The notes beneath the pieces are model-generated. The model did no database searches, was not told where the DNA came from, and saw only the letters and a program-made list of their open reading frames with translations. Below, in pieces: positions 21,846-29,828 of a stretch of DNA of 64,000 nt. This DNA comes from a bacterium (GTDB lineage Bacteria > UBA8248). Made by a program: the position numbers and the translations under genes. The stretch spans positions 96,001-160,000 of the forward strand of contig CBDBZY010000036.1 in NCBI GenBank assembly GCA_965213685.1, in the 5' to 3' direction. The first letter of the stretch is position 1; each line of letters begins with the position of its first letter.

Positions 21846-22715
21846 TCAGGGCGCGCCCGAGAGCGCCTTCTGAATGGTTCGGCGGATGAAAACGGGCGTC
21901 ACCTGCCTTCTGTAGTCATCGCTCGCGCGAATGTCGGTCAACGGCTCCAGGTCATCCAGCGCACCGGTGAGCACGGCGTCGATGTTCTCGCCGGTGAGCT
22001 CCTTCCCCCGAAGCCCCTCCTCCACCGCCGTGAGGCGCCTGAATACAGCCTCCACCCCGCCGAGGCCGATTCTCACTTCCCTGGCCGTCTTGCCGTCCTC
22101 CTCCGTGGACACCGCGGCGGAGATGGATATGCAGGGCTTGTCTTCCTTCGAGCGCGTGGTGAAGCGCGTGTAGGCCGTGCGGAAGCCGTCGGGCAGCGGA
22201 TCGACCTCGATCGCGCACAGCAGCTCGTCCTCCTCGAGTGCGCATTCGTAATATCCCGTCCAGAATTCCGTCGCCGGAATCACCCGCTCCGCCCCGTCCG
22301 CCTTCCTGGTCTTCATGCGCGCCTCATATACCAGAAACGCGGCGGGAGGGTCGGACGCCGGCTCCGCGAAACAGAGGTTGCCGCCCACCGTCCCCTGGTT
22401 GCGGATGCGAATCGTCGCCACGTTGTGGAATATCTCCGCGAGCAGCGGGAAGCGCTCCTGCACGAGGGGGGAGGTCTCTATCTTGCGATGCACCGTCTTC
22501 GCCCCGATGCGGATCCCGCCGCTTTCGGTCTCCTCGATGAAGTCCAGATCGTCCGCCCCCGCGATGTCTATCAGCACCTCGGGCGCATACACGCGGGATT
22601 TCATGAGAATCGAGAGGGCGACGCCGCCAGCATACACTTTCCCCTCATCGCCGTGCTCTCGCATGGCGGCAAGCGCCTCGTCCACACTGTTCGCGGGCAG
22701 ATGCTGAAAAGCCAT
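21846..22715 (-). CDS. Xanthine dehydrogenase/CoxM family FAD-binding subunit
   Basis: YAGG, IRNQGTVGGNL, PASD, DIRASDDYRR. Confidence 0.92.
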   Translation of the reverse strand: MAFQHLPANSVDEALAAMREHGDEGKVYAGGVALSILMKSRVYAPEVLIDIAGADDLDFIEETESGGIRIGAKTVHRKIETSPLVQERFPLLAEIFHNVATIRIRNQGTVGGNLCFAEPASDPPAAFLVYEARMKTRKADGAERVIPATEFWTGYYECALEEDELLCAIEVDPLPDGFRTAYTRFTTRSKEDKPCISISAAVSTEEDGKTAREVRIGLGGVEAVFRRLTAVEEGLRGKELTGENIDAVLTGALDDLEPLTDIRASDDYRRQVTPVFIRRTIQKALSGAP

Positions 22716-22734
22716 TTTTTATCCTCTCTGTTCG

Positions 22735-25029
22735 CTACGCGCCATTTTTCTCCCGTCGTTCATTCATGGCGGCCAGTATCTTCTCCGGCGTTATCGGCAA
22801 CGTCGTGATCCGCACGCCGACGGCGTCATACACCGCGTTCGCGATCGCGGCCGAGGTGCCCAGCTGCGCCATCTCTCCCAGCCCTTTGGCGCCATACGGC
22901 CCGGTGGGGTTTTCCGTCTCGATGAGCACGACCTCGAGTTCCGGCAAATCCTGGGTCGTGGGCAGCTTGTAATCGAGCCAGTTCGCGTTCACCGGCTGGC
23001 CGTCCTCGACCTGAAAATCCTCCGTCATGGCGTAGCCCACGCCCATCAGCGCGCCGCCGTCCAGCTGGCCCAGCGCACCCGCGGGGTTCACGATGGTTCC
23101 CACGTCGTTCGTGCTGACGATGCGCAGCACCTCGAGCGCGCCGGTTTCGACGTCCACCTCCACCTCGGCCACCTTGGCGCCGTAGGCGTAGGCGGCGGAC
23201 CAGTTGCCATACCCCGTCACGGGGTCGGGCGTCTCGCTCGGGGAATCATAGGAGGACGCCGTATAGACGGCCTCGCTGCCCTCCTTGTCATATATCTTCA
23301 TGTAGGCTTCGGCGTGCGTCACCTGCTTCTCGGGAGAGCTGGTGACGAAAATCCGGCCCTCGCGCGCGTCCAGATCGTTCGGGTCGCATTCGAGCAACTC
23401 CGCAGCGCCCTGGAAGAGCATGTTTCTCGCCTCCAGCGACGCCAGGCGCGTGGCCTGGCCGTCGATGGTCGTCGTTCGGCTGCCCCGCACCCCCCATCCG
23501 TAGGGATTCACCGAGGTGTCGCCGTTGATGATCCGCACGTCCTCCACGCGCACGCCCAGCGTCTCCGCGCAAATCTGCGCCAGCGTGGTGTCCGAGCCGT
23601 TGCCCATCTCGATGGTGCCCGAGAGCAGCTGCACGGTGCCGTCCTTGTTCATCTTGATGAACGCGCCGGCGGTCTCCGGACCCATCGCGCGCGCCCCTGT
23701 GAAATGCACCGCCGCACTCAGCCCGTAGCCGCGCCTCTTGCCGTTGCGGCCCTCCTGCCTCTCGCGCCACGGCACGCGCTTGACCGCTTCCTGCACGCAT
23801 TCCGAAACGCCGCAACTCGTGATCTTGGCGCCGATGATGGTAGTGTCGCCCCTGCGCACGAAGTTCTTCACCCGAAACTCCGCCGGGTCCATGCCGATCT
23901 CCTCGGCGTGTTTCTCCATGGCGACCTCCGAGCCGAACGAATAGCCGCCATTGCCCACGCCGCGCATCGCACCGCCAGGCGGCACGTTGGTGTAGACGAC
24001 GTCGGCGTGATGGCGATAGGCCTTGTAGTGGTAGAGGCTCCCCCCCATGTGCGCCGTGATGCCGCCGACCACCGGTCCGTAATCGGAGTACCCGCCGTTT
24101 TCCACCACCATTTTGACGTCGCGCGCCAGGAGCATCCCCTCCTTGTCGGTGGCGATGCGGAAGGTGTGGAACTGCTTCGTCCGATGGGTGCCGAGGAGAA
24201 ACTCCTCCTCGCGCGTGTAGTAGAACTTCACGGGGAGGCCCAGCCTCTTCGCCGCGATGATGGAGAGGAAATCGATGTTGAACTTGCTCGTCGCCTTGCC
24301 GCCGAAGCCCCCGCCCACGTAGTTCGTTACCACGCGAATGTTGGCCTCGGGAATCTTGAGGAGCTTGGAGAAATACTGGCTCGAAAGGCTCGGGCACTGC
24401 GAGGAGTTGTAGACCGTCACGTCGCCTCGCGGAGACCACTCGGCGATGGACACGTGCGCCTCGAAGGAGGCGTGCATCTGGCGCGAGGAGGCGGAGGTGA
24501 GCTCGCTCACGTGGTGGGCCTCCTCGAACATCCTGTCCACCTCGCCGAACTCCATGTGCTTGGTGAACGCGACGTTGTTCGGCTTCGCCTCGTGGAGGAC
24601 GGGGGCGCCCTCCCGCATCGCCTCGAAGGGGTCGAAGACAGCGGGGAGCTCCTCGTAGTCAACCTCGATGAGGTCGAGCGCCTCCTGCGCGACGTCCTCG
24701 GAGGTCGCCACGACGGCCGCCACCGAGTCGCCCACGTAGCGCACCTTGTCCGTGGCGAGGGGGCGCTGATCGTAGCAGACCGGCACGACGCCCCAGACCA
24801 CCTCGTCCGGCACGTCTCTGGACGTCATCACGAGCTTGACGCCGGGGAGCCTCTCCGCGCGGCTGGCGTCGATGTTCCGGATGCGGGCGTGGGGGAGCGG
24901 ACTCCCCAGCAGCTTGCCGTGGAGCATCTTGGGCAGGAGGAGGTCCAGGGTGTACATGGCCTGGCCCGTCACCTTCTCCGGCGCATCGACGCGCGGCACG
25001 CTCTTTCCGACGTATGCGAGATCAGTCAT
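22735..25029 (-). CDS. Xanthine dehydrogenase-family molybdopterin-binding subunit
   Basis: EKVTG, GGGFGGK, AMRGVG, GSRT, GAKGLGE (catalytic Glu); lacks the CoxL AYXCSFR motif, so not a CO dehydrogenase. Confidence 0.93.
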   Translation of the reverse strand: MTDLAYVGKSVPRVDAPEKVTGQAMYTLDLLLPKMLHGKLLGSPLPHARIRNIDASRAERLPGVKLVMTSRDVPDEVVWGVVPVCYDQRPLATDKVRYVGDSVAAVVATSEDVAQEALDLIEVDYEELPAVFDPFEAMREGAPVLHEAKPNNVAFTKHMEFGEVDRMFEEAHHVSELTSASSRQMHASFEAHVSIAEWSPRGDVTVYNSSQCPSLSSQYFSKLLKIPEANIRVVTNYVGGGFGGKATSKFNIDFLSIIAAKRLGLPVKFYYTREEEFLLGTHRTKQFHTFRIATDKEGMLLARDVKMVVENGGYSDYGPVVGGITAHMGGSLYHYKAYRHHADVVYTNVPPGGAMRGVGNGGYSFGSEVAMEKHAEEIGMDPAEFRVKNFVRRGDTTIIGAKITSCGVSECVQEAVKRVPWRERQEGRNGKRRGYGLSAAVHFTGARAMGPETAGAFIKMNKDGTVQLLSGTIEMGNGSDTTLAQICAETLGVRVEDVRIINGDTSVNPYGWGVRGSRTTTIDGQATRLASLEARNMLFQGAAELLECDPNDLDAREGRIFVTSSPEKQVTHAEAYMKIYDKEGSEAVYTASSYDSPSETPDPVTGYGNWSAAYAYGAKVAEVEVDVETGALEVLRIVSTNDVGTIVNPAGALGQLDGGALMGVGYAMTEDFQVEDGQPVNANWLDYKLPTTQDLPELEVVLIETENPTGPYGAKGLGEMAQLGTSAAIANAVYDAVGVRITTLPITPEKILAAMNERREKNGA

Positions 25030-25123
25030 GGAACCCTCCACTCGTGTGCGGCGTCGAAGCGGGCGCGCCGCAGGGTGCAATCCGCCGCGATTCGTTTATT
25101 TCTCCATATCGTACGGTTCCATT

Positions 25124-25308: not shown

Positions 25309-26056
25309 ATGCCCATTCGTTTTGATTTCCAGGGCCGGAAGGTCATCCTCACGGGTGCGGCCGGTGCCATGGGAAGCCGCATCCTCCAGGGATACCTCGA
25401 GGCCGGCGCCCGGGTGTTCGCCACCGACAGGGCGGGCGCCGCCTTTGACGCGATGGCCGGCCCATCCGACCAGCTCTTCAAGCGCCCCTGCGACCTGGGC
25501 CGACGTAGCCGCCATTCGCGCGACCATGCGCGAGGCGCTCCGGTGGCTCGGCGGCTGCGACGTACTCGCCAACGTGGCGGGCTACATGCCGATTCGACCG
25601 CCCCTCGAACTCCGGGAGGAGGACTGGGAACCGGTGCTGGGCGTGAACCTGCTGGCGCCGTATTTCTGCATACAGGAAACCATCGAGGCGCTGAAGGCCT
25701 CCGGGACGGGGCGAATCATCAGCTTCGCGTCCATCGCGGGCAAAATGGGGGGCATCGGCCCGAACCTCACCTACGCCGCCGCCAAGGCGGGCCTGCTCGC
25801 CATGACGTTCAACCTCGCGCGCGAGCTCGCGAAGACGGGGGTGACGATCAACACGGTGCAGCCCGGCCCGGCCGACACGGGCCTCCACTTTGAATCCCCG
25901 CCCGAGATGCTGGCGAACGCAGCGAACGCCCACCCGATGGGCAGGCTCACGACGCCCGACGACGTATGGCAGACCGTCCTGTTTCTGTCGAGCGAGGAGG
26001 CCGCGCACATCAACGGAGAGGCGGTGGATGTGAACGGCGGCTTCTGGACGGACTAG
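25309..26056 (+). CDS. SDR family oxidoreductase, frameshifted (+1 G at 25497-25499; sequencing error or pseudogene)
   Basis: TGAAGAMG...PCDL in one frame continues as ADVAAI...NVAG...YAAAK...VNGG in another; removing one G restores one ORF. Confidence 0.8.
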
Positions 26057-26073
26057 CCGCGGAGGAGAACGCC

Positions 26074-26919
26074 ATGTCGACCGGAAACCGGAAAGGATAC
26101 GCGAACCCCGACCTGCTCTGGTCGCCCGCGCAGCTCAACGAGCGCATGGACGACCCGAACCTGCGAATCATCGACGCGCGCACGGGCGAGCGCTACGCGA
26201 TGGGGCATATCCCCGGCGCCCGGCACTTCGATCTGTATGGCGTGAACAGCGATGACTCCAGCGAGGCGTCGCTGCGGAACTTCTTCGCCATGTGGGCGTT
26301 CCTGCTGGGAAACCGGGGGGTGTCGTTCGAGAACGCCATCGTTTTCTATGACGACATCGTCGGCAACACGAGCGTGCGCGGGTTCTGGATGCTCGAGCTT
26401 TTCGGCCACAAGGACGTCCACGTGCTCGACGGCGGCTACAGCGCCTGGGAGCGGGCGGGATTCGAGACCACGCGGGACGCCGAGCCGCCCCGGCCCGCCG
26501 CTTTCGAGATGGCGTTCGAGCCGCATCGCCTCGCCACGCGGGAGGACGTGATGCGCGCCATCGGCGAGGAGGGCCACGTGCTGCTCGACACCCGCTCGAT
26601 AGAGGAATGGGAAGCGCGGCAGGTGCGGGCGCGGAGGGGCGGCATCATCCCGGGCGCCGTCTGGCAGGAGTGGCTCCAGCACCTGACGCCCGAGGGGGAG
26701 ATGAAGCCCGCCGCCGCGCTGCGGGCGCAGTTCGAGGCGCTGGGGATCACGCCCGAAAAAGAGGTGACCGCCTACTGACAGACGGGCTACCGTGCGGCGC
26801 ACGGCTATTTCGCCCTGAGGCTGCTGGGCTACCCGAACGTGAGAAACTACATGAGCTCCTGGAAGGAGTGGGGCAATCGCGAGGATACGCCCATCGCGCA
26901 GGCGCAGGGCGCCGACTGA
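26074..26919 (+). CDS. Tandem-domain sulfurtransferase (rhodanese/SseA family), predicted selenoprotein with Sec at TGA 26776-26778
   Basis: GGAGGAG RBS; GHIPGA, VLDGG, LDTR, IPGA; reading through TGA gives the active-site loop Y-U-QTGYRA and the C-terminal signature [11 protein letters not shown]; 281 aa. Confidence 0.88.
26784..26815 (+). promoter_or_regulatory. Putative bacterial SECIS element
   Basis: Apical stem CCGTGC-GGC-GCACGG (26790-26804) begins after an 11-nt spacer following UGA, with G in the loop; extendable by GGGC/GCCC pairing. Confidence 0.7.
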
Positions 26920-27010: not shown

Positions 27011-27123
27011 AAGAAGATAATGATGCTTCTGGAGGTCAGGGCGCTTTCACGGCGGCCCGGGAACGGTTCTTCGGGTTGGGCCGTTTCATTTTCATTCATC
27101 TATGGATTTCCTGGAGGTTCGCA

Positions 27124-28140
27124 ATGAAGAGGAATTTCGCTCGAATCATCCTGGCCGCGGGGATCGCTTGCGGCCTCTCGGCGGCGGGTCTCGCTGCGGC
27201 GGCGCCCACGCTTCGTCTCGGCGCGGCCAGCAACACCGGCGGCATGATAGTCTTCGTTGGAGTAGACAAGGGCTTTTTCGCCAAGAACGGACTCGACGCG
27301 AAAGTCGTCGTGCGCAACACGGGCGCCCAGCTCACCAAATCCCTCAAGGCCGGCCAGATTGACTTCGCCCCCGCCGCCTTCACCAACCTGCCTGCGGCAC
27401 TCGAGCGCGGCATCAAGGTTCGCGGCGTCGTGGGCTACGTCGGCGGCTCCTACAAGAAATCCACCACCGACGAGATGGTGGGCATCGCCGTGCGCCCCGG
27501 CGCCGGCATCCAGACCATCAAGGACCTCGAGGGCAAGAAAATCGGCTCCACCTTCGGCTCCACCGGCGACCTCTACCTCCGCACCCTGCTGGAGAAAAAC
27601 GGCATCGGCGTAGGCGGCGTCCGCCGGATCAACGTGCGTCCGCCGAGCATCGTCTCCCTGTTCGATTCCGGCGGCGTCGACGCCATGGTCGCGTGGGAGC
27701 CCTACCTCACCCGGATGACCGACAAGGTGAAGGGCGCCTCGCTCGTGTCGCGCGGCGGCGACTACGTCTGCTTCTGCGCCGGCATGCACGGCGTGCCGGA
27801 GCGCGTGTACAAAGACAAGAAAGCAACCCAGGCGTTCGTCAACGGCATGTCCGAGGCGGCCGCCTACGTGCGGGACGCCAAAAACAGCGACGAGATCGCC
27901 AAAATCGGGGCCCGCTACGTTCGCGGCATGGACGCCGCCCTCATCAAGCGCACCATCAAATGGTGGACCTACGACCCGCGCCTGGGCGAGAACACGCTCA
28001 AGGCCTTCAACTTCTCGGTCAAGCAGCTCATCGCCCAGAAGAAGATGAAGCGGCCCTACGACCCCAGAAAATACTTCGATTTCCAGTTCATCAACCGGAC
28101 GATGAAAGAACATCCGGAGTGGTTCCAGGATCTGAAATAA
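27124..28140 (+). CDS. ABC transporter substrate-binding protein (NitT/TauT/SsuA family)
   Basis: Signal peptide, KGFFAKNGL, DLEGKKIG, WEPY; GGAGG RBS. Confidence 0.9.
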   Translation: MKRNFARIILAAGIACGLSAAGLAAAAPTLRLGAASNTGGMIVFVGVDKGFFAKNGLDAKVVVRNTGAQLTKSLKAGQIDFAPAAFTNLPAALERGIKVRGVVGYVGGSYKKSTTDEMVGIAVRPGAGIQTIKDLEGKKIGSTFGSTGDLYLRTLLEKNGIGVGGVRRINVRPPSIVSLFDSGGVDAMVAWEPYLTRMTDKVKGASLVSRGGDYVCFCAGMHGVPERVYKDKKATQAFVNGMSEAAAYVRDAKNSDEIAKIGARYVRGMDAALIKRTIKWWTYDPRLGENTLKAFNFSVKQLIAQKKMKRPYDPRKYFDFQFINRTMKEHPEWFQDLK

Positions 28141-28161
28141 CCCGAATCCTCACGCGCCCGC

Positions 28162-28194
28162 ATCCGCGCCCCGCTCTTTTGCCGGGGCGCGGAT
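28162..28194 (+). terminator. Intercistronic stem-loop after the SBP gene (stabiliser or partial terminator)
   Basis: atccgcgccccg-N9-cggggcgcggat, 12-bp stem, no U tract. Confidence 0.5.
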
Positions 28195-28222
28195 TGCGCT
28201 TGAATAGGAACCGAGAAGCCAT

Positions 28223-29017
28223 ATGCCCCCCAAACTGGTTGTCAACGGGCTGTCGCACCACTACCCGGACGAATACACGGGAGAGGACGTCCACGCGCTC
28301 GACAAGGTGAGCCTCGCCGTGGAGGACGGCGAATTCTCCGCCGTCGTCGGTCCGAGCGGATGCGGGAAGACCACCCTGCTCAACATTCTCGCGGGGCTTC
28401 TCCCCCACACCGAGGGCAGCGTTCAGGTGGACGGCAAGGAGGTGCGGGGGCCGGGACCGGATCGGGGGGTGGTGTTTCAGGAACACGCGATCCTCCCCTG
28501 GCGCACCGTCGGGAGAAACATCGGCCACGGCCTTGAGATTCAGGGGCTTCCCCGGGAGGAGAGGGAGAGAAAGGTGCAGGAATTCGTCGACCTCGTCGGC
28601 TTGTCCGGCTTCGAGGATCGCTATCCGCATGAGCTTTCCGGCGGCATGAAGCAGCGCTGCGCACTCGCGCGCACGCTGTGCGCCAACCCCGTCGTGATGC
28701 TGATGGACGAGCCCTTCGCCGCCGTGGACGCGCAGACGAGAATCACCCTCCAGGAAGAGTTGAACCGCATCGCGATTGCGACGAAGAAGACGATCCTCTT
28801 CATCACGCACAATGTGGATGAGGCCGCGTTTCTCGGAGATCGCTGCTTCATCTTCTCGCGCCGACCGGGAAGGCTGAAGGCCACCGTGAAAATCGACATC
28901 CCGCGCGGGAAGCGCATATGGAAGGACGTGCTGTCGGAGCGCGCCTACAGCGAGCCGCGCGACGAAATCCTCCGCCTCGTGCGCGAGGAGGTGTTTGACG
29001 ATGACGAGGGAGAGTAG
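28223..29017 (+). CDS. ABC transporter ATP-binding protein (NitT/TauT)
   Basis: GPSGCGKT, LSGGMKQR, LMDEPF, ITH. Confidence 0.95.
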   Translation: MPPKLVVNGLSHHYPDEYTGEDVHALDKVSLAVEDGEFSAVVGPSGCGKTTLLNILAGLLPHTEGSVQVDGKEVRGPGPDRGVVFQEHAILPWRTVGRNIGHGLEIQGLPREERERKVQEFVDLVGLSGFEDRYPHELSGGMKQRCALARTLCANPVVMLMDEPFAAVDAQTRITLQEELNRIAIATKKTILFITHNVDEAAFLGDRCFIFSRRPGRLKATVKIDIPRGKRIWKDVLSERAYSEPRDEILRLVREEVFDDDEGE

Positions 29018-29828
29018 CGGGGCGGGGGGAGTGCGAAAGCCGCACTCCAGGCGCTGGAGAACGTTCATCCGGGGAGGCGGGGTCGAGCTGCTGGCCCTCA
29101 TCGTGGGCATCCTGGCGTTATGGTCCGTCATCTCGCAGATCATCCCGAATCCGGACCGCTACCTGCCCTCGCCGCTTTCCGTCGTCGCCTCCTCCTACGA
29201 CGTCATCTGGAAGGGTCTGCTGCCCAACTACATCGGGCAAACGCTGTGGCGTCTCGTCATCGGCAGCGCCATCGGCCTGCTCCTGGGCATCCCCTTCGGC
29301 ATCGCCCTGGGACTGAACCGCACGGTCTCGGACATGTTCTACCCCATCATGAACTTTTTTCAGTCCATATCCGGCATCGCCATACTCCCCATCATCGTCG
29401 TCTGGTGGGGCAACAGCGAAAAGACCGTATTCATCGTCATCCTCTACACCTGCTTCTTCCCGATCGCCTTCAACGTCCTGACCGGCGTGCGCAGCACCCC
29501 GATGATACTGGTGAACGCCCTGCGCACCCTCGGCGCCTCGCGCCTCCGCATCGTGAAAGACGTGTTCATACCAAGCGCCATGCCCCACATCGCCACCGGA
29601 GCGAGGCTGGGCATCGGCTACGCCTGGCGCGCGGTCATCGCGGGCGAGATGCTCGCCGGCAGGCGCGGCCTGGGGTGGATGATCTTCACCTCGCAGGACG
29701 CCGACCTCACCGCCCAGGTGATACTCGGGATGGTGATGATCGGCGCCATATGGATCATGATCGATCGCTTCGCCCTGCGTCCCATCGAGGCGGACACCAT
29801 CCAGCGATGGGGGCTCGTGCAGCGATGA
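29001..29828 (+). CDS. ABC transporter permease (NitT/TauT)
   Basis: LPSP, ALRTLGASR, AWRAVIAGEM, GLG. Confidence 0.92.
   Translation: MTRESSGAGGVRKPHSRRWRTFIRGGGVELLALIVGILALWSVISQIIPNPDRYLPSPLSVVASSYDVIWKGLLPNYIGQTLWRLVIGSAIGLLLGIPFGIALGLNRTVSDMFYPIMNFFQSISGIAILPIIVVWWGNSEKTVFIVILYTCFFPIAFNVLTGVRSTPMILVNALRTLGASRLRIVKDVFIPSAMPHIATGARLGIGYAWRAVIAGEMLAGRRGLGWMIFTSQDADLTAQVILGMVMIGAIWIMIDRFALRPIEADTIQRWGLVQR

Follow-up and report, generated by a model that had tools for sequence, protein, structure and literature searches.

A two-domain rhodanese gene of a UBA8248 genome with a predicted selenocysteine at the catalytic cysteine position

An open reading frame that starts at ATG 26074 of the window (the whole stretch of 64,000 nucleotides analysed here) stops, under translation table 11, at an in-frame TGA at codon 235. 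Does this codon end the protein, or is it recoded as selenocysteine (Sec) within a longer one? Translated with TGA as Sec (U), the product consists of 234 residues, U235 and 46 further residues, up to a second TGA at 26917–26919. An earlier note on this DNA had proposed that the same frame runs on for 46 codons and completes a rhodanese fold. The translation, the alignment with the solved structure 1e0c and an AlphaFold model all agree with that proposal. We conclude, with a probability of about 0.93, that 26074–26919 on the forward strand is a genuine gene and that it encodes a two-domain rhodanese in which Sec, through a recoded UGA, replaces the catalytic Cys. Its features and neighbours are collected in Table 1.

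Table 1. Positions of the rhodanese gene, its elements and its neighbours in the window
Feature	Position	Strand	Remarks
Xanthine-dehydrogenase-family molybdenum hydroxylase, large and FAD subunits	21846–25080	-	Divergent from the dehydrogenase–rhodanese pair; kept in most orthologous loci
Short-chain dehydrogenase gene	25309–26056	+	17 nt 5' of the rhodanese ATG; split over two frames by extra base 25497
Shine-Dalgarno-like GGAGGAG	26061–26067	+	6 nt 5' of ATG 26074; read from the sequence
Predicted selenoprotein gene	26074–26919	+	281 codons including Sec235, then terminal TGA stop 26917–26919
N-terminal rhodanese domain, residues 17–127	26122–26454	+	Best Pfam stretch; 1e0c alignment
C-terminal catalytic rhodanese domain, H156 to E259	26539–26850	+	Secondary structure of the AlphaFold model
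UGA, predicted to be read as selenocysteine, residue 235	26776–26778	+	Opens the active-site loop U-Q-T-G-Y-R
Spacer between UGA and hairpin, 11 nt	26779–26789	+	Invariant in 32 orthologues except one synonymous column, ACG/ACC/ACT
SECIS-like hairpin CCGUGC / loop GGC / GCACGG	26790–26804	+	Stem arms 26790–26795 and 26799–26804; loop 26796–26798
NMT1-type ABC transporter: binding protein, ATPase, permease	27076–29828	+	Downstream of the rhodanese gene

A Pfam search of the read-through product matched PF00581 in two stretches (9e-35), corresponding to two tandem rhodanese domains. The closest match of known structure is RhdA of Azotobacter vinelandii (PDB 1e0c, E = 5.4e-46, residues 9–274 aligned), and the second is a rhodanese of Thermus thermophilus (PDB 1uar, E = 1.8e-43). 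Like both, the window protein has two rhodanese domains, its active-site loop starts where theirs does in the alignment, and loop position 6 is an Arg. Identity is about 32%, and the loop reads UQTGYR in the window protein but CQTHHR in the solved relatives, with predicted Sec here in place of Cys there. In the alignments, residue 235 falls on the Cys at the head of the CQTHHRS loop in 1e0c and on the loop Cys of 1uar, and its column holds Cys in all 12 full-length database homologues. Judged from these alignments, Sec would stand at the catalytic Cys position, where the earlier note had placed it. In the N-terminal domain, the loop expected to hold the catalytic residue is YDD, without Cys, in a stretch that aligns with VVYDDEGGGWAGR of 1e0c. 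Without the catalytic Cys this domain would be inactive, as is established for such rhodaneses.

The earlier note had compared the protein with SseA/TST sulfurtransferases, and this calls for a minor correction. The best solved relatives are of the RhdA/thiosulfate-sulfurtransferase type and not SseA: the 3-mercaptopyruvate sulfurtransferase SseA equivalog of NCBIfam (NF008557) gave 135.1 bits, below its cut-off of 250. The loop UQTGYR likewise resembles the RhdA/thiosulfate-sulfurtransferase type more closely than the loop of SseA.

The AlphaFold model of the read-through product has a pLDDT of 87 and a pTM of 0.89, and at full length it superposes on 1uar and 1e0c with TM scores of 0.82–0.85. 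A strand (230–234), a loop (235–238), a helix (239–250) and a further strand (256–259) form the classical rhodanese active-site arrangement in the model. The last three of these elements of the C-terminal domain are encoded after the TGA, so the 46 codons beyond it are predicted to be structurally needed.

These codons bear directly on one alternative, in which the TGA is a true stop and the locus encodes a 234-residue fragment without the catalytic loop or is a decaying pseudogene. Public annotation follows this reading. An annotated length of 234 residues, with ...TAY as the C terminus, was found for 25 of the best 120 database relatives listed; this is the truncation that had been anticipated from standard annotation. 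The named NCBI records in five orthologue clusters are 234-residue entries called 'sulfurtransferase' or 'rhodanese-like domain-containing protein'. A fragment of that length would, however, lack the active-site loop, one helix and one strand of the domain core. Moreover, the frame stays open for 43–52 codons past the TGA in all 32 orthologues compared, the window's own included, and neither a frameshift nor a second internal stop was seen in any of them. The sequence after the TGA is conserved and aligns with the end of the solved rhodaneses, and it accumulates synonymous changes while the protein is kept: Leu248 uses six codons and Arg249 four. We consider termination at this codon extremely improbable.

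The TGA form is widespread among relatives. When the 22 other genomes of the genus were searched in six frames, 21 yielded a TGA-bearing orthologue; in the remaining one the match runs into a contig end at residue 198. Among the 51 genomes of the class searched, ten genomes from three further genera also carry a TGA orthologue, at 69–75% identity. At the codon level, TGA was present in 32 of 32 orthologues of the Sec clade, window included, and TGC or TGT in 10 of 10 genomic Cys orthologues. The pairing of Cys with TGA at this column, which had been put forward as a check, is thus complete in these orthologues and in the 12 of 12 database homologues with Cys.

In a quick maximum-likelihood tree (LG+G4, 56 rows), the 32 Sec rows group as a single clade (SH-aLRT 100) that is embedded in a set of 24 Cys rows. 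Long branches lead to several of the Cys outgroups, without effect on the Sec clade. Because the Sec clade is nested among Cys rows, a single change of state suffices. On this phylogeny, the Sec form appears to have arisen once, from a Cys ancestor, within the bacterial family of the window organism. One Cys-bearing relative (G024) has both tRNA-Sec and selB, and therefore the Cys forms are not simply a product of the loss of the Sec trait.

We also considered whether the true codon is TGC or TGT and the TGA a mistake of sequencing or assembly. The assembly does contain errors. The base at 25497, in the dehydrogenase gene upstream, is absent from the contigs of three of four public runs, and the fourth run has no cover there. 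Since three runs omit this base and a relative (L019) has an intact dehydrogenase of 248 aa, we regard it as a one-base insertion error. The selD gene of the same genome is likewise spread over several frames. The errors seen are indels, however, not substitutions, and the rhodanese gene is without a frame break in the assembly. The same TGA codon stands in the assemblies of 31 other genomes. A check of the raw data had been proposed for this site, and the TGA at 26776–26778 is kept in the contigs of all four public runs. Three of these runs match the gene without differences, and the fourth is a variant with seven differences in the gene, none of them within 26776–26804. All four come from one study, which may include the source sample, and their agreement is therefore not independent support. 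An error at this codon is, in our view, vanishingly unlikely.

The assembly is unusual in its size, at 7.97 Mb compared with 2.9–4.6 Mb for the genus. Fifteen contigs with a total of 3.34 Mb have a GC content of 33–50%, including C64 (1.6 Mb), C18 (0.8 Mb) and C41 (0.6 Mb), and the other 56 contigs (4.63 Mb) have one of 50–69%. The fifteen low-GC contigs may represent foreign DNA that ended up in the same bin.

Downstream of the TGA, the hairpin CCGTGC-GGC-GCACGG that the earlier note had reported after an 11-nt spacer was found at its place (Table 1). According to the legend of Fig. 2 in PMC13188914, the bacterial SECIS model has an apical loop of 3–9 nt, an upper stem of 4–16 bp, a G in the first two loop positions, a distance of 16–37 nt from UGA to loop and a minimum free energy (MFE) of at most −7.5 kcal/mol. 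Compared with this model by hand, not via bSECISearch, the hairpin agrees on every count: its loop is 3 nt long and opens with GG, its stem has 6 bp, the loop lies 17 nt from the UGA, and the isolated hairpin folds at −9.1 kcal/mol.

The nucleotide sequence of the site is conserved. Across the 32 Sec orthologues, the 29 bases from the TGA through the end of the stem contain two variable columns only, both at synonymous third positions, whereas third positions 3' of the hairpin vary freely. Synonymous diversity was 0.04–0.056 in the nine-codon segments starting at residues 233–236, against a gene mean of 0.32 (30 orthologues, with two later-fetched ones absent and one duplicate locus dropped). 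These four segments are the lowest of 269, each of the ten lowest begins within residues 230–239, and the hairpin lies in this stretch.

Comparison with the Cys forms points to a hairpin specific to the Sec clade. Stem positions are paired in 96.9% of 161 cells in the Sec forms, compared with 31.4% of 70 cells in 10 Cys orthologues, a value within the range of slid controls (18.6–40%). Relative to the two nearest Cys forms, the Sec consensus carries two amino-acid changes within the hairpin, TCG to GCG (Ser to Ala) and GCC to GGT (Ala to Gly). A synonymous change, CGC to CGT, separates it from one of these two forms, the other being already CGT. Each of the three changes turns a hairpin mismatch into a Watson-Crick pair.

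No covariation was found in the stem: none of seven pairs had changed on both sides among the 32 Sec orthologues. Within the 6-bp stem, the sole changes break a pair, with U changed to C and a resulting C.A mismatch in 2 of the 32 orthologues. The optional seventh closing pair, A-U, is absent in three distinct rows, the window included. As the stem is essentially invariant and without covariation, the RNA evidence is one of conservation and not of compensatory change.

Generic folding energy did not single out the site. The MFE fold of 71 nt around it gave a z of −0.09, with 78 of 200 shuffles folding as well. For the 48 nt starting from the TGA, a competing structure took the place of the hairpin in the MFE folds of 12 of 30 orthologues, the window's own included. 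Mean MFE was −16.1 kcal/mol in Sec forms versus −14.8 kcal/mol in Cys forms, which is not discriminating. At gathering thresholds, no Rfam family was matched in the whole window; Rfam offers no bacterial SECIS family that would be informative for this site.

How often such a hairpin follows a TGA was examined with a pattern defined post hoc, with the site already seen. A 6-bp Watson-Crick stem 11 nt after TGA, with a 3-nt loop starting with G, occurs at 20 of the 245,653 TGA trinucleotides of the genome on both strands, several of the 20 lying on low-GC contigs. When G-U pairs were allowed, 214 sites were retrieved, and with spacers of 10–12 nt, 646. The strict pattern is no general SECIS detector in this genome, because it misses selD, whose stem contains a G-U pair. 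The in-frame TGA of selD is nevertheless followed by a hairpin of the same geometry as that of the rhodanese gene, with an 11-nt spacer, a 6-bp stem and the loop GGA.

The SECIS of Escherichia coli fdhF has its minimal upper stem-loop 11 nt after the UGA. The hairpin in the window shares this spacer length, and in both elements the stem is short and GC-rich and the small loop opens with G. The window hairpin differs in its 3-nt loop GGC and its unrelated sequence, and no bulged U was seen in it.

Recoding would need the Sec machinery, and the four genes that the earlier note had named for checking (selC, selA, selB and selD) are all in the genome. A tRNA-Sec with the anticodon tca was detected at 78.6 bits, and selA and selB gave matches without internal stops. 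The selD gene (contig C31, about 101300–102100 on the reverse strand) is fragmented and its frame broken in the assembly, split over at least three frames; it encodes a Sec-type SelD with an in-frame TGA of its own (...VKAGG-U-GSK...). These breaks are probably due to indel errors, since one assembly indel has been demonstrated at 25497. In all five relatives searched for it, selD is intact and has one TGA. The pair of tRNA-Sec and selB was found in all five relatives searched for that pair, three of these genomes overlapping with the selD set. The contigs with the machinery have a GC content of 65–66%, compared with 63% for the contig of the window.

Other signs of selenium use were observed in the genome. 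We detected YqeB (286 bits, cut-off 220) and two YqeC-family genes, at C24:19578–20234 and 23114–23785 and at C31:146014–146658. YqeB and YqeC are markers of the selenium-dependent molybdenum hydroxylase trait, and their presence therefore suggests that the organism uses selenium in a cofactor besides Sec. A second two-domain rhodanese, a paralogue 34% identical to the first, is encoded on contig C12 (69384–70199, forward strand). An in-frame TGA occupies the catalytic position of this paralogue too (Y-U-R-L-S-H-R). After a 10-nt spacer comes a 9-bp hairpin whose loop reads GUC, and counterparts bearing TGA occur across the genus. A database paper of 2026 places genomes labelled Nitrospinota/UBA8248 among the selenoprotein-richest bacteria, with 48–54 selenoproteins.

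A last reading of the codon is that UGA is decoded as a standard amino acid (Cys, Trp or Gly), by a near-cognate tRNA or under a reassigned code. In its favour, the openness of a frame under a selected code leaves the identity of the inserted residue unproven. TGA is, however, also the terminal stop of the window gene and of some orthologues, others using TAG or TAA. The selA and selB matches run without internal stops, and there is thus no sign of a genome-wide code reassignment. Against a standard amino acid stand also the full Sec machinery, a hairpin that stands where a SECIS would and is absent from the Cys forms, and an aligned residue in homologues that is always Cys, the usual partner of Sec. 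We hold decoding as a standard amino acid to be highly unlikely and infer that Sec is inserted at residue 235.

Sec-containing rhodaneses are not new, as the earlier note had recognised. A 2005 table for the Sargasso Sea lists a predicted Sec-containing 'rhodanese-related sulfurtransferase' of COG2897 with three sequences, and a SECIS figure is listed as well (PMC1088965). Three selenoproteins appear as 'Sulfurtransferase COG2897' in a 2007 table for Olavius symbionts (PMC1976440), and one as Sulfurtransferase COG2897 in a 2008 table for GOS (PMC2398784). A 2026 review distinguishes five rhodanese selenoprotein forms, of which forms 2 and 4 are entered as 'rhodanese-like domain-containing protein' with PF00581 and the motif UxxG (PMC13188914). 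The window protein agrees with the COG2897 Sec family in PF00581, in predicted Sec at the catalytic Cys, in the two-domain architecture and in U-Q-T-G (residues 235–238), which corresponds to UxxG. In both, the UGA is followed by a small hairpin whose apical loop contains G. The protein fits this catalogued Sec-rhodanese family, in which we place it by description (motif, Pfam and architecture), as form 2 or form 4.

Two NCBIfam models cover other Sec-containing rhodanese domains, and the read-through product scored below the cut-off of each: 36 bits against 115 for rhodanese_LYCAU (NF041203) and 17.4 against 805 for TsoB (NF045694). Their architectures differ from that of the window protein. 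Their motifs, given as CxU and UxxxxU, are also unlike UxxG (PMC13188914).

The rhodanese gene has a conserved neighbourhood. The short-chain dehydrogenase gene upstream is probably co-transcribed with it. A dehydrogenase precedes the rhodanese gene in 28 of the 31 Sec orthologues examined in other genomes, compared with one of the seven Cys loci examined. The NMT1-type transporter follows the gene in 18 of the Sec orthologues examined in other genomes. These conserved neighbours (dehydrogenase, hydroxylase and transporter) point to no specific sulfur donor or acceptor.

The product would be a cytoplasmic two-domain sulfurtransferase of the RhdA/thiosulfate-sulfurtransferase kind, in which Sec replaces the Cys that opens the loop. 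During translation, the hairpin 11 nt after the UGA would recruit SelB carrying Sec-tRNA(Sec). Sec would be inserted, and the ribosome would continue for 46 codons to the stop at 26917–26919. By analogy with the Cys rhodaneses, the selenolate of Sec235 may accept sulfane sulfur from thiosulfate, a persulfide or a similar donor, and the enzyme-bound Se-S intermediate may then pass the sulfur to a thiol or another acceptor.

The Sec-rhodanese might instead be a selenium carrier, with Sec235 holding a Se-Se adduct for SelD or for the maturation of the selenium-dependent molybdenum hydroxylase. The hydroxylase variant would fit the YqeB and YqeC genes of the genome and the divergent arrangement in which the rhodanese operon adjoins a xanthine-dehydrogenase-family hydroxylase. 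The support for a selenium carrier extends as far as this adjacency, and we think such a role very unlikely.

Read as a two-domain Sec-containing sulfurtransferase, the locus opens no new class, the family having been catalogued since 2005. Its first consequence is for annotation: the public 234-residue entries are without the catalytic residue, and the full product would be 281 residues long and carry Sec in its active site. Beyond this, the locus offers a well-sampled case of what appears to be a single Cys-to-Sec conversion, in which the hairpin took shape within the coding sequence, in part through two substitutions, Ser to Ala and Ala to Gly, that alter the protein beside the active site. 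The case could serve as a model for the origin of a SECIS element.
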